IMG/VR virus record: IMGVR_UViG_3300009103_001934
Span: 96,001 to 160,000 of that record
Length of the DNA stretch: 64,000 bases
Source of the DNA: a virus
Direction: 5' to 3' (one strand)
A model generated the notes under the pieces. That model searched no databases and was not told the origin of the DNA. It worked only from the letters and a program-made list of their open reading frames with translations. The position numbers and the translations under genes were made by a program. Positions 8,488 to 26,073 of the stretch are shown here, in pieces. Positions within the stretch are counted from its first letter, which is position 1. Each line of letters starts with the position of its first letter.

Positions 8488-9194
8488 TTTTTAAAAGCTT
8501 TTCGACAGAAGGCCAAGATAAGTTTGTTTCTAATTTACTCGGCCCCTGCCCCTCCGGAGATTCATCGTTCGGCAAGAGGGGGTATTTTTTAGACGTGGGC
8601 TGTAGACACCCCGTATATTGTAATAACACTTTTGCTCTGGAGGAAGAACTTGAGTGGGGAGGATTACTCTTTGATATAAACGTGGGGCCGAGCTATAGAA
8701 GATGGATGCGCCGAAGACCTCACAGCAAAATCTATAAAGTAGACGTAGAAAGCGAGAGGTTTTTGCATATTTTAAAGGCAGAGTCTTTACCGTGTGTGGA
8801 TTATGTTTCTATTGATGTGGAAGGAGCCTCTCTTCAGGCGCTGTGTAACTTGTTAGACGCTGGAATTCAATTTAAGGTAATGACCATAGAGCATAATAGT
8901 TATCTTGACGGAATCAACAAAACCGGACAAAAAGGGCATAGACAAATTATGCGTAGACTATTGTTTTCTGAGGGCTATCACCTTTTGTTTGGAGACGTTC
9001 TTCTGGGAAGAAAGGGCGGGAGGTCTAAACTTTTTCATCGTAAAGATGGGTCTCGTTGGAGGAAGCCTGTCGGAAAGCCTTTCGAAGACTGGTGGGTTCA
9101 CCCTAACTTTTTTAACGAAAAAGTTTTAAATAAAGGAGGGAGTAATCTTTATTGGGAAGAGTGTACAAAAAGAGTTAGTGATTTGGGCATTTAA
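8484..9194 (+). CDS. FkbM-like methyltransferase
   Basis: FLDVGC..P..NNTFALE, SIDVEG, TIEHN, EDWWVHP. Confidence 0.7.
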   Translation: MIFKSFSTEGQDKFVSNLLGPCPSGDSSFGKRGYFLDVGCRHPVYCNNTFALEEELEWGGLLFDINVGPSYRRWMRRRPHSKIYKVDVESERFLHILKAESLPCVDYVSIDVEGASLQALCNLLDAGIQFKVMTIEHNSYLDGINKTGQKGHRQIMRRLLFSEGYHLLFGDVLLGRKGGRSKLFHRKDGSRWRKPVGKPFEDWWVHPNFFNEKVLNKGGSNLYWEECTKRVSDLGI

Positions 9195-9375
9195 CCTGCT
9201 TTGCTACACCGTGTATACCTTCCCTTACTAGAACGCTTGTTCCACCGTGCAGATGGATTAAGGTCATACTACGTTGAGTAGAGTTATCTTCTTCAAGGTA
9301 TTGTACTTTGTTGCAATTAACAAATACTTCTTCCCCTTGCGGCCCTGTCAATTTAATTAGAGGTACATTATCCAT
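9175..9375 (-). CDS. FlbD/SwrD-like small protein
   Basis: IKLTG..GEEVFVN...V..LE...T.I.L.GG..VLVRE pattern resembles the FlbD family, judged by eye. Confidence 0.5.
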   Translation of the reverse strand: MDNVPLIKLTGPQGEEVFVNCNKVQYLEEDNSTQRSMTLIHLHGGTSVLVREGIHGVAKQVKCPNH

Positions 9376-23597: not shown

Positions 23598-23819
23598 ATG
23601 TCTGATTACGAATGGCGCGGCACATTAAATAATAGTGATTTATTTGTAGTTATTAAATATAACCTTGGTGCTTGGAAAGTAAAATATGCTGAAACAGAAT
23701 ACGATCTAAATAATGTAGATTATATATATGTAGCGCAAGAATGGAGTCCGATGAAGTATATTATAAATAAAGATAAGATAGAAATAAATAACTTAATAAC
23801 ATTTTTAGGATGGAAATAA
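23598..23819 (+). CDS. Hypothetical protein
   Basis: The track ORF 23517..23819 actually reads on the + strand. Likely start is MSDYEW at 23598. Confidence 0.55.
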   Translation: MSDYEWRGTLNNSDLFVVIKYNLGAWKVKYAETEYDLNNVDYIYVAQEWSPMKYIINKDKIEINNLITFLGWK

Positions 23820-23866
23820 ATAAAAATAAACTTGAATTTAGTCAGGAAGTAGGCTAATATATAGAT

Positions 23867-23938
23867 GTGGGTGCAACGCCCACAGTTCGTTCATCATCAT
23901 CGAATCCTCCTGCGGGAAACTGCGGGGGGATTTTTTTT
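23867..23938 (+). ncRNA. Candidate 72-nt trans-acting sRNA
   Basis: Own promoter TTGAAT(23832)-17-TAATAT(23855), 5' hairpin, unpaired core AGTTCGTTCATCATCATCG, 12-bp GAAA-capped terminator plus T8. Confidence 0.65.
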
Positions 23939-24197
23939 GTATTTTCTTTAAAACAGTGTAAATAATAATAAGACCTTGCTAAATAAATAAATAAGGCAAG
24001 CTCAACAGGTTATGTTCAAATAAGCTTTGTAGAATAGGTTCGTCAAATATAGAACTGAAATAAAGTAAAAATAAAACAGGCCCAAATAAGGTAAGGTTTA
24101 AACTAAATGAGAGTCAATCTCAACGTCCCTCCTTTATGCTAATGAGACTCATTCTCAATTTCACCGGTCCCGATGTTGGCAATCAAAATTCCAAGAA

Positions 24198-24280
24198 AAT
24201 GATCGACAAACTATTTTGCCGCTCACGAATGATCGACAAACAAATTTGCCAATCAAAATCTTCCCAAAATGATCGACAAA
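24198..24280. repeat. Three direct repeats AATGATCGACAAA
   Basis: Copies at 24198, 24228 and 24268 (30- and 40-bp spacing). Confidence 0.9.
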
Positions 24281-24332
24281 AAAAAGTAAAAAAAGGCTTG
24301 CACTAAAATGGGATGTACGGTATACTATTAAA

Positions 24333-24785
24333 ACAGTGAGGGTAACACCTCCACGATCTTTGAGACAATTTAAGAAGGCGACTGTGGTAGTCCTCACGCA
24401 AGTGAGTGCCCTCGCGGGAAAGCCCCCAGTGGAAGCGCGACGAAACTGGACGGTGATACGATACCGGAGGGATGGGGTTCGACTCCTCACGCCCTAACAA
24501 TTTAAGCCTTGGGTGACGGAACAAACGTCCGACAGAGGAAACGGCCCAAGCAATTTTTACTCCGGCGACGGTTGGAGTAAGGGAATGGCTGAATAACCCT
24601 CCATCATAAGGGGTAAGGCACAGGGCCGCGCGTTAGAGTGCAATCGTATGAGGCGCGTGGTTCTGGTAGACTGGTAAACTTGAACTGTATTGTGCACTGG
24701 TCTTGATGGTAATGCAGCAATCCATCTTCCCATTAATTTAGCATAATCCTGAGGTTGGTGAAAACCATTAAAGAGATATTAAGCA
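24333..24785 (+). ncRNA. Candidate structured ncRNA(s) containing a tRNA-like T-arm
   Basis: Promoter TTGCAC(24298)-17-TATACT(24321), no + strand ORF, many hairpins with GNRA loops, T-arm TGGGG-TTCGACT-CCTCA. Confidence 0.55.
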
Positions 24786-24835
24786 ACAACGCCGAAATCC
24801 GCCTCTGATTTTTTTTGCCCTAATGTTAATTTTTT

Positions 24836-24873
24836 GCTTGACACGCCGGGACCGGTCCCGGCGCCTGTCAAGC
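24836..24873. repeat. Module A1: GCTTGACA-CGGGACCGGTCCCG-TGTCAAGC
   Basis: Core at 24847-24860, T-tracts on both sides, DnaA box at 24879. Confidence 0.95.
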
Positions 24874-25137
24874 TTTTTTTATTCACAGCCTGTGAGAATT
24901 TCTTAAAAAGGGGCGATTTCTCCGGTGTGAAATTCGGCGTATATAAGAAACTATTTGACCCCATACCCTGCAAAAACAGTGTCAAGCTCAAAAACAATTA
25001 CCCTATATAAACGCATTTAATTAGCCTAATTAAAAAAGATGTGTGTGACGTGCATTTTTTTCTTGCCAGTGATTAGGAAGTGTGAGATAATGGTTTTAGT
25101 CGATTGAGACATAACTACTAACGAAAGAGAACGAACT

Positions 25138-26073
25138 ATGCCTATTACCGCAAAACAAAGCAAAAACAAAGATTGGGATTTCACCGTAGCACAGGAGGAG
25201 CTTTTCCTGCCTGACGGCAAGAAGTCCGGTTTCTTCGCGTCCCGCCGCCTCGACAACAACGAGGTGCTGGGCTGTCACACTAGCCGCTACGGCATCGTCC
25301 AGAATGGCGACCTAGTGGAAAAAGCCGAGAGTGCTTTTCGCCGCAAGGGATTGGGCGATTTTGAGCGCAACATCTATGTGACTGACGGCGGAGCCAAGCT
25401 GCGCGTCAATTACGACTTCCAAGGTCACGATATTGAAGTGCCAGAAGTGGGTGACAAGATGGGCTTTCGCCTGACCTTGCAAAACTCATTTGACCGCTCG
25501 CTGCGCGTGTCCTTTGCGCTCGGTATGCTTCGCCTCGTTTGCACCAACGGTATGCAGACGCTCGAAAAGGAATTGGATATGCTCAAGAAGCACTCCAAGA
25601 ACTTTGACCTCGGCGCGTTGCTGACTGATGACGCAATCGACAAGGCTATGGCTACGTTCACCAACACGGGGAACACATACGCCGCGCTGGCTCGCGTTGG
25701 AGTTACTCAAGAGCAAGGCATCTTCGCCCTGCAAAACCAAGCCAACACTGGTTTGATTTCTGACAAGGTGCGCGAGGGTATCGCAAGCGTGTGGAACAAC
25801 CCACGCGAGGATGGTGCTGACGGTTCGGTTGGTGATGACCGCAACCTCTACCAACTCTACAACGCTGCCACGCAGTACCTCACCAGTGACAACTTGGTTG
25901 ACAAGAAGTCTGGCGATGCTGTCGGCACGTTCGAGTCCACCCGCTTCGAGTACGCGAACCGCGTTAGCTCGCAACTGCTCAAGCGGTTCAACCTCGCCAG
26001 CGACAACCCCAAGCGGTTTGACAAACTGGTTGCGGTTGCCAAGGCTGACGGCGTAAAGGTCGAGAACAACTAG
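25138..26073 (+). CDS. DUF932-family phage/plasmid protein
   Basis: YGIVQN, QNSFDRS, RLVCTNG, LYQLYNAATQY. Promoter TTGCCA(25063)-17-GATAAT(25086). Confidence 0.8.
   Translation: MPITAKQSKNKDWDFTVAQEELFLPDGKKSGFFASRRLDNNEVLGCHTSRYGIVQNGDLVEKAESAFRRKGLGDFERNIYVTDGGAKLRVNYDFQGHDIEVPEVGDKMGFRLTLQNSFDRSLRVSFALGMLRLVCTNGMQTLEKELDMLKKHSKNFDLGALLTDDAIDKAMATFTNTGNTYAALARVGVTQEQGIFALQNQANTGLISDKVREGIASVWNNPREDGADGSVGDDRNLYQLYNAATQYLTSDNLVDKKSGDAVGTFESTRFEYANRVSSQLLKRFNLASDNPKRFDKLVAVAKADGVKVENN

Follow-up and report, generated by a model that had tools for sequence, protein, structure and literature searches.

A 64-kb stretch of DNA, referred to here as the window (bases 96001–160000 of the 178,487-bp IMG/VR virus record IMGVR_UViG_3300009103_001934; G+C content 40.8%), contains at positions 24298–24816 what is probably a self-contained operon for non-coding RNA, carried by an uncultured marine phage with a 178-kb genome. 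A copy of the manA RNA lies inside this operon, a tRNA-like module lies ahead of manA, and the leader is similar to that of ribosomal RNA (rrn) operons. The locus is real: its core is a known RNA family in an unreported context, together with a new and well-supported family of tRNA-like RNAs. Both the manA match (E = 4e-18) and the covariation over 34 homologues of the tRNA-like module are far beyond chance.

A preliminary description of the region, made from the sequence alone, had reported a promoter-driven, multi-domain non-coding RNA with similar A/U-rich linkers between its domains. The present analysis supports this, the linkers being conserved, and every hairpin listed in that description was found in its place when the sequence was read. 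The region had also been called free of open reading frames (ORFs) and had been ended at 24785. Mechanical ORFs of 53–109 amino acids do overlap it on both strands, but in relatives these are broken by stop codons or only partly covered. The 109-residue minus-strand ORF, the sole overlapping ORF tested, has no Pfam match. The unit starts where it was said to start and continues beyond 24785 to a U-run at 24809–24816.

The DUF932 protein of the phage led to three related phage contigs (L002, L003, and L004). Word scans specific to manA gave 81 non-identical arrays; among these scans, a pattern search of metagenomes gave 77 loci. All related sequences found come from marine metagenomes or marine viral contigs.

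The Largest Domain Is a Full-length manA RNA

In this and the following lists, (+) denotes the plus strand.

24558–24736 (+): full-length manA RNA (Rfam RF01745); match over model positions 1–192 of 192 with 77.9 bits (gathering score 55.2) and E = 4e-18

The match spans two elements of the preliminary description, the TTACTCC/GGAGTAA hairpin (24557–24580) and the domain of ~150 nt closed by GGGAA/TTCCC (24581–24731). A new class of non-coding RNA had been considered there; the largest domain is instead a known family that went unrecognized, and the new family is that of the T-arm unit, which has no Rfam match. The Rfam comparison that had been proposed thus recognized manA and left the other modules unmatched. 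In searches at E up to 10 on 23800–25200 and at E up to 1 on 11 loci, manA was the only family found, and all other hits (PyrR and miRNAs among them) were at chance level.

A 2010 paper introduced the manA RNA as a candidate riboswitch present in marine metagenomes, in cyanophages, and in two gamma-proteobacteria (PMC2864571). Isolated manA RNAs are reported to assemble in vitro into decamers and a 60-subunit, RNA-only cage (cryo-EM preprint 10.64898/2026.07.01.735769). The copy in the window resembles the family in covering the full model above the cut-off, in its marine habitat, and in its phage carrier. It differs in its setting, which is a promoter-to-terminator non-coding cassette rather than a 5'-untranslated region (UTR), with a boxA-like leader and other RNA modules flanking it. 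A further difference is that the place of the cassette relative to genes changes between related phages. The 5'-UTR position that goes with the "Cis-reg" label of the family is therefore not found here: manA has its own promoter and boxA-like leader, separators precede the next gene, and the cassette is relocated. In the array of L119, which has the common leader, a tRNA-like module, and module X, the last element is a larger manA-like RNA (~235 nt, 9130–9365) with a P1 hairpin, GAACTTTATC, and GGTAATAAAGAAATCC; it scores below the Rfam gathering score for manA.

The T-arm Unit Is a Covarying Family of tRNA-like RNAs

The unit between the leader and module B has the following parts.

24374–24497 (+): tRNA-like module; covariance model R1, 73.9 bits, E = 1.7e-19
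24374–24380 and 24490–24496 (+): acceptor stem GAAGGCG/CGCCCTA; 5 of 7 pairs, with an A.C mismatch
24386–24387 (+): GG motif
24393–24406 (+): P2 hairpin CTCAC-GCAA-GTGAG, in the place of the D-arm
24409–24413 and 24467–24471 (+): P3, CCCTC/GAGGG, which closes a three-hairpin central domain
24426–24449 and 24451–24466 (+): inner hairpins CCAGT/ACTGG and CGGT/ACCG, enclosed by P3
24473–24489 (+): canonical T-arm TGGGG-TTCGACT-CCTCA
24497 (+): discriminator A; CCA is not encoded

This unit is a real RNA family that Rfam does not match. The T-loop motif occurs 150–260 nt 5' of the manA 3' anchor in 38 arrays, which yield 35 distinct modules adjoining manA. With model R1, 48 copies in contigs from marine phages and metagenomes are detected among 87 sources, and one in this genome; nearly all 48 lie directly or one module upstream of manA. 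The family has a common plan. A 7-nt acceptor strand is followed by AA(A/G)TTGGTG, in which TGGT is invariant, and by a variable P2 hairpin in the place of the D-arm. A P3 stem of 6 bp, in the place of the anticodon stem, surrounds the central domain, and a variable loop is absent. The 3' half consists of a 5-bp T stem with TTCGAAT, the 3' strand of the acceptor stem, a discriminator A or T, and the (A)CAATTT linker. Neither TGGT nor the T-loop bases vary in any of the 34 sequences, and the length of the module ranges from 120 to 200 nt.

Covariation was measured on an alignment (A2) made by MAFFT, which is blind to structure, for 30 proposed pairs; as controls, the 3' partner of each pair was slid by 1–3 columns. 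In the alignment 87.5% of the cells are paired, against 41–46% in the slid controls, and 161 cells carry double changes, against 12–34. The covariation score is 0.49, compared with 0.07–0.15. In 500 shuffles, neither this score nor the observed paired percentage or double-change counts were ever attained; the number of further pair types was reached in 21 of 500. The acceptor stems illustrate this best, because they are wholly different among subtypes and still complementary (GCCACGG/ACGTGGT, GTTGCGG/ACGCGAC, AAGGGTG/CACCCTG, and CCGTTAG/TTAACGG). Four of the five T-stem pairs are kept throughout the 33 distinct rows, two of them without variation and one with covariation, and the pair on the acceptor side is non-standard in 21. 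Columns 7/250 and 233/249 of alignment A2 hold conserved non-standard G.A and C.A combinations in 20–21 of the 33 distinct copies. These are the acceptor pair beside the T stem and the first T-stem pair, where such combinations would be unexpected in true tRNAs.

The tRNA mimic that the preliminary description had seen among the domains is thus genuine; across the 34 homologues there is covariation in P2 and P3 as well as in the acceptor and T stems of the mimic, as the proposed homologue comparison was to show. Its statement that there is no cloverleaf does not hold for the family, because the homologues have a four-arm, cloverleaf-like topology with an enlarged domain in the place of the anticodon arm. 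As in a tRNA, a 5-bp T stem with a 7-nt T-loop (TTCRANY) sits on a 7-bp acceptor stem; in the window copy the T stem has 5 bp with one G.U pair. The anticodon arm, in contrast, is replaced by a multi-hairpin domain of 55–130 nt, and the 7-nt anticodon loop of a tRNA is not present. The proposal of a decoy for anticodon nucleases is unlikely because the module has no anticodon loop. CCA is encoded in none of the copies, and the phage has no CCA-adding enzyme.

The copy in the window, together with those of L063 and L086, forms a divergent subtype with a short P2, a CCCTC/GAGGG P3, three small inner hairpins, and the A.C mismatch in all three members. Two relatives show other rearrangements: L089 (268–438) is a chimera whose 5' and 3' halves come from two different subtypes and whose acceptor strands no longer pair, and L013 (array extract position 690–715) has retained the acceptor-stem hairpin GTTGCG-GAAA-CGCGAC alone.

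Programs for tRNA detection do not recognize the module. ARAGORN at default settings found no tRNA in the window and nine arrays and made no tmRNA (transfer-messenger RNA) call in the window, and Rfam gave no tRNA match for the window module at E up to 10. At the lowered threshold -ps90, ARAGORN reported a weak "tRNA-Arg with 25-nt intron" in L007 and L035, with none in the window, and tRNA-Lys with introns of ~300 nt in L002 and L013; the former were not counted as tRNAs, and the latter are implausible and were not counted either.

Among known RNAs, tmRNA shares several features with the family: an acceptor stem and a T-arm, a large insert replacing the anticodon arm, and a GG five or six bases after the 7-nt acceptor strand with no D stem before it (in the tmRNA of the phage itself, the GG is at 12–13). 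The family differs in that it has no tag frame, pseudoknot series, or encoded CCA, and G3.U70 occurs in no subtype. Searches of the arrays for tmRNA were negative with ARAGORN, even at a lowered threshold, and with Rfam. A degenerate or permuted tmRNA, another of the earlier proposals, is not supported by these results, and a complete tmRNA is encoded elsewhere in the phage (genome 70910–71327, outside the window). The tag of that tmRNA is unusually long and acidic (EADEILAKFGYVEEEELQLAA). The phage also has three tRNAs (Arg-tct, Ile-tat, and Leu-taa), and both these tRNAs and the tmRNA encode CCA.

Predicted Promoter and rrn-like Leader

The region upstream of the tRNA-like module contains a predicted promoter and a short leader.

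24298–24326 (+): predicted sigma-70-type promoter; -35 TTGCAC at 24298–24303, 17-nt spacer, -10 TATACT at 24321–24326
24336–24354 (+): 5' leader hairpin GTGAGG/CCTC.CAC, in the place of the rrn boxB; folding weak on its own (z = -0.5)
24352–24372 (+): boxA-like anti-termination element and spacer, CAC-GATCTTTGAG-ACAATTTA, from comparison with Escherichia coli rrn

The promoter had been called a consensus promoter; TTGCAC-17-TATACT is promoter-like and matches the consensus at 8 of 12 positions. It is preceded by an A-rich tract (24280–24296), and the predicted start is at about 24333. The promoter block is 93–96% identical in L002, L003, and L063. The boxA-like motif is preceded, at a constant spacing of 8–9 or 29–31 nt, by a -35/-10 pair in 47 distinct arrays, and in 27 of these the pair scores at least 9 of 12, compared with 8% of random 90-nt windows. 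The leader hairpin occupies the same place in relatives with different stems and a GAAA loop (TGAGG/CCTCA, TAAGG/CCTTA, AGGG/CCCT, and GATGAGG/CCTTATC), so that the stems covary.

Many bacteria may use a GUUCUUUGA-type boxA. Operons for rRNA carry a boxB hairpin, boxA, and boxC, and boxA with its spacer binds NusB/E and NusA (PMC2724277). The E. coli rrn anti-terminator reads CAC-ugcucuuua-acaauuua, the last eight bases being the NusA-binding spacer (PMC2724277, Table 1). The window leader is identical to the E. coli CAC-boxA-spacer at 17 of 20 positions, including the whole 8-nt spacer. It fits the pattern of an rrn-type anti-terminator, in which an AUU-containing spacer follows the boxA core close to the 5' end of an untranslated operon, and reads CAC-GAUCUUUGAG-ACAAUUUA here and CAC-UGCUCUUUA-ACAAUUUA in E. 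coli. Over 46 distinct arrays the consensus is G-N-T-(C/T)-TTTGA-R-A...AATTT. The motif is the sole good match in the 178-kb genome; one degenerate site (genome 29884) is probably coding. The leader thus looks like an rRNA-operon anti-termination signal. The resemblance comprises the hairpin, CAC, the boxA-like UCUUU core, and the identical ACAAUUUA spacer. It extends to the order of what follows: structured untranslated RNAs come after the leader, and a tRNA-shaped unit separates the leader from the main RNA. The differences are that the boxA-like element reads GAUCUUUGAG and not UGCUCUUUA, that the tRNA-shaped unit is not a tRNA, and that the products are phage RNAs. An untranslated transcript of ~480 nt would be an obvious target for Rho, and a Nus-dependent anti-termination leader would therefore make functional sense.

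Linkers and Further Modules

Conserved linkers lie between the modules, and other structured elements follow the tRNA-like module or surround the cassette.

24365–24374 (+): linker 1, ACAATTTAAG, 5' direct repeat of the tRNA-like module
24497–24506 (+): linker 2, ACAATTTAAG, 3' direct repeat of the tRNA-like module
24366, 24498, 24551, and 24734 (+): linker hexamers, CAATTT at the first three positions and TAATTT at the last
24733–24739 (+): linker 4, TTAATTT
24505–24551 (+): module B (z = -1.9), folded as a hairpin or a small junction, with GCC.TTGGG/CCCAAGC as the outer and GACG/CGTC as the inner stem
24508–24550 (+): CTTGGG/CCCAAG hairpin within module B
24741–24816 (+): 3' module D with a U-run, a probable terminator; closing stem AATC..GAGG/CCTC.GATT, conserved CATTAAAGAG, U8 at 24809–24816
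24756–24767 (+): TGGT-GAAA-ACCA, inner hairpin of module D
24836–24881 (+): palindromic hairpin CTTGACA..GGGACCGGTCCC..TGTCAAG with a U-run, outside the RNA modules; -28.1 kcal/mol, z = -6.4

The 10-mer ACAATTTAAG occurs twice in the window (24365 and 24497), compared with 0.35 expected. The two copies flank the tRNA-like module exactly, which fits gain or loss of the module by recombination between linkers; in L002 there is a single linker with no module between. The linker (A)CAATTT, or a close variant, forms the 3' flank of 34 of 35 tRNA-like modules. At the border of manA the linker motif is found on the 5' side in 61 of 62 arrays and on the 3' side in 73 of 79, against 10% of random 20-nt windows. 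The linker sequence equals the rrn spacer. RNase E prefers A/U-rich single-stranded sites, and the linker fits such sites.

Module B has homologues in 20 arrays, before or after manA, in which the outer stem covaries with GCATAGG/CCTATGC; it has no Rfam match. Homologues of module D stand at the 3' end of 13 arrays, and its GAGG/CCTC stem in the window corresponds to GTGG/CCAC in L004; its fold is not significant alone (z = -0.9). There are at least three further recurrent modules, X (~82 nt), Y (~137 nt), and Z (~112 nt, beginning GGTGCTGG(A/G)TTACAGGCC), seen at L003 5137–5420, at L004 8215–8330, and after manA in L006 and L013. Modules B, X, Y, Z, and D each recur in 5–20 arrays, before or after manA, and Rfam recognizes none of them.

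A conserved C(A/G)TTAAAG(A/T)G of the 3' module, at 24768–24777 of the window and in 20 other arrays, is complementary to the boxA-like UCUUUGA of the leader. A leader-trailer stem UCUUUGA/UUAAAGA, as in rrn processing, was considered and rejected, because the duplex energies are no better than those of shuffles in 9 of 10 arrays.

The palindrome bounds the cassette on the 3' side in the window; in L002 (5003–5040) and L003 (5005–5042) it does so on the 5' side, ahead of the array promoter. It is a cassette-boundary element that could serve as a back-up terminator, as an operator bearing a -35 element, or as both. Directly 5' of the RNA promoter, at 24170–24285, three copies of AATGATCGACAAA alternate with TTGCC(A/G)..TCA(AAAT) repeats. 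These repeats also adjoin the L007 and L035 arrays, where they are inverted and lie on the opposite flank; they look like an iteron- or operator-like block that accompanies the cassette.

Cassette Mobility and Gene Context

The genes around the cassette are phage-like and include a RuvB-like ATPase, DUF932, homologues of L5 gp82 and gp88, a T4-type large terminase, and PhoH. No cultured phage has a terminase that reaches 27% identity to this one, which makes the lineage an uncultured one without a named relative. No TROVE/Ro, CCA-adding enzyme, RtcB, SmpB, or tyrosine integrase gene was found in the phage. A blastn search of the RNA region against 50,697 phage records gave zero matches. Two pattern scans (for the tRNA-like core and the manA anchor) of 185,579 bacterial and archaeal species genomes found no copy; these used exact patterns only, so they provide neither a clue to the host nor proof of absence. 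True tRNAs adjoin one of the 81 arrays (L096), where they lie downstream of the terminator.

The DUF932 gene (25138–26073) is on the same strand as manA, ~400 nt downstream, and has its own promoter at 25063–25091. Between manA and this gene lie the U-run (24809–24816), the strong hairpin with its U-run (24836–24881), and that separate promoter. L002, L003, and L004 carry the common promoter, leader, and manA. The cassette is upstream of the DUF932 gene in the window and downstream of it in L002 and L003. In L002 the leader leads directly to module B, the T-arm unit being absent, with the break exactly at the linker. L003 has two other modules, whereas L004 has the T-arm unit and a further module after manA. 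Related phages thus reshuffle the modules and relocate the cassette, so manA is not a 5'-UTR riboswitch here.

Contigs from RNA libraries of three studies contain a near-identical tRNA-like module and cover 24354–24505, which speaks for presence only. One such contig spans 24354–24651, from the tRNA-like module through module B into the start of manA.

Alternative Explanations

Several observations weigh against an operon that is cut into separate RNAs, or against parts of that reading. The stability of the tRNA-like unit is that of dinucleotide shuffles (z = 0.04), the whole 482 nt is at z = -1.3, and in these comparisons the boundary palindrome alone, and no RNA module, has a significant folding energy. 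The preliminary description had named folding no better than dinucleotide shuffles, with no covariation, as what would count against it; the folding energy is indeed at shuffle level, but covariation is present, so its own ground for rejection does not apply. The window copy belongs to the most divergent subtype of the tRNA-like family (73.9 bits, against 100–142 for most copies), and only five of the seven acceptor pairs form. In its minimum-free-energy fold the 3' acceptor strand pairs with AGGG instead; the centroid fold is the four-arm shape. The boxA-like motif has a G where E. coli has an A as well as a 2-nt insertion. Over the whole genome, which is rich in A+T, the linker hexamer is frequent and shows no enrichment. 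The RNA-library data are assembled contigs that possibly contain DNA; they show neither ends, strand, nor level, and a lack of cover in them carries no meaning. Finally, about half of the arrays have no tRNA-like module, so the module cannot be needed for the release of manA.

The main rival is an uncut multi-domain RNA of ~480 nt. Its manA part would oligomerize, each subunit displaying a tRNA-like arm and the other modules, and the multivalent assembly would act as a decoy or scaffold toward host proteins that bind tRNA, for example RNase P, enzymes for CCA addition or modification, or toxins that target the acceptor end. The position of the tRNA-like module, directly or one module 5' of manA in nearly all 48 cases, would suit such an RNA, as would the self-assembly of manA in vitro (preprint 10.64898/2026.07.01.735769) and the conserved GG and T-loop elbow, a feature read by many tRNA-binding proteins. 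The RNA-library contig that joins the tRNA-like module, module B, and the start of manA points the same way, but it may be DNA or a precursor. Half of the arrays lack the tRNA-like module, the order and content of the modules vary so freely that they appear to be independent units, and the conserved single-stranded linkers resemble separators. On balance we consider the uncut RNA unlikely. A more specific proposal is that the tRNA-like module and manA are a functional pair, in which an RNA-only shell or ring of manA carries the mimic as an uncleaved arm or inside it. The assembly would be a sponge for host proteins that read the elbow or acceptor end (RNase P, CCA-adding or modification enzymes, and defence toxins), and the cassette would hijack host rRNA anti-termination; to this we give little credence. 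It is less probable still that manA acts in cis, as a riboswitch or 5'-UTR element of the DUF932 gene with the other hairpins as part of a long leader. Rfam and Weinberg et al. (2010) do class manA as a probable cis-regulator (PMC2864571), and the DUF932 gene follows on the same strand at ~400 nt. However, the U-run, the -28 kcal/mol hairpin with its U-run, and the promoter at 25063–25091 intervene, the cassette follows the DUF932 gene in L002 and L003, and the arrays have their own promoter and boxA-like leader.

Two further explanations concern the T-arm unit, and both are highly improbable. One is that the unit is a functionless relic, either what remains of a tRNA or tmRNA gene after decay or a phage attachment-site core derived from a tRNA. 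Its T-loop, TTCGACT, is identical to that of the tmRNA of the phage, the next-best R1 match in the genome is the 3' end of that tmRNA (though at just 13.6 bits, E = 0.06), and the acceptor stem of the window copy is imperfect. Compensatory changes over ~35 distinct copies, including those in P2, P3, and P4, which are not tRNA elements, nevertheless indicate selection on the fold, and covariation largely refutes a relic. The 5' strand covaries with the 3' strand, which an attachment core does not need, no tyrosine integrase is present in the phage, and the array patterns match 0 of the 185,579 bacterial and archaeal species genomes in the exact-pattern search. A phage attP with a tRNA-derived core was rejected on the same grounds, the acceptor sequences also differing between copies. 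The other explanation, which the preliminary description had raised, is a bacterial Y RNA of the YrlA type that tethers an Ro/Rsr protein. YrlA RNAs have a T-arm and an acceptor-like stem and lack an anticodon loop, and the window RNA is likewise a tRNA mimic with a T-arm and without an anticodon. It ends at the acceptor stem, however, and not in an Ro-binding stem; Rfam searches at E up to 10 gave no match, and a TROVE/Ro gene is absent from the phage.

Proposed Mechanism

For the operon reading, which we favor, the sigma-70-type promoter would drive a transcript of ~480 nt consisting of the leader with its hairpin and boxA-like element, the tRNA-like module, module B, manA, and module D with its U-run. 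Host Nus factors assembling on the boxA-like leader would allow RNA polymerase to complete this folded, untranslated transcript without Rho termination, as in rrn operons. Cleavage by RNase P and RNase E, we infer, would then yield separate stable RNAs. RNase P would cut 5' of the tRNA-like module, before G24374, and the remaining ends, the 5' end of manA among them, would arise by cuts of the RNase E or RNase Z type within the (A)CAAUUU linkers, which are single-stranded. The tRNA-like module would be the counterpart of the rrn spacer tRNA or of a mitochondrial "t-element," and a stable mimic of tRNA may remain from it. manA would here be a free RNA, trans-acting or self-assembling, and not the riboswitch of a neighboring gene. 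The linkers may double as short homologies for the gain, loss, and reshuffling of modules between phages.

There are precedents for parts of this scheme. In plant mitochondrial t-elements, MALAT1 mascRNA, and T4 species 1 and 2, mimics of the acceptor and T-arm set the end of an adjoining RNA through RNase P or RNase Z. In the T4 tRNA cluster, non-tRNA stable RNAs (species 1 and 2) are co-transcribed with tRNAs. The module in the window differs from these in that it keeps a conserved, enlarged central domain, which a mere cleavage handle would not need.

Since 2010 manA has been an orphan "riboswitch candidate," and neither the 2010 paper nor the 2026 preprint addresses its role in phage. The locus described here and ~80 related arrays suggest that, in one marine phage lineage, manA comes from its own rrn-like, boxA-led non-coding operon, as one cassette within a shuffled set of structured RNA modules. 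About half of the arrays have, as the upstream partner of manA, a tRNA mimic that is well supported and unmatched in Rfam, and this new RNA family is available for curation through model R1 and alignments A2 and A3. If the processing proposed here is true, the operon would be a bacterial-virus counterpart of tRNA-punctuated RNA maturation, for non-coding cargo.

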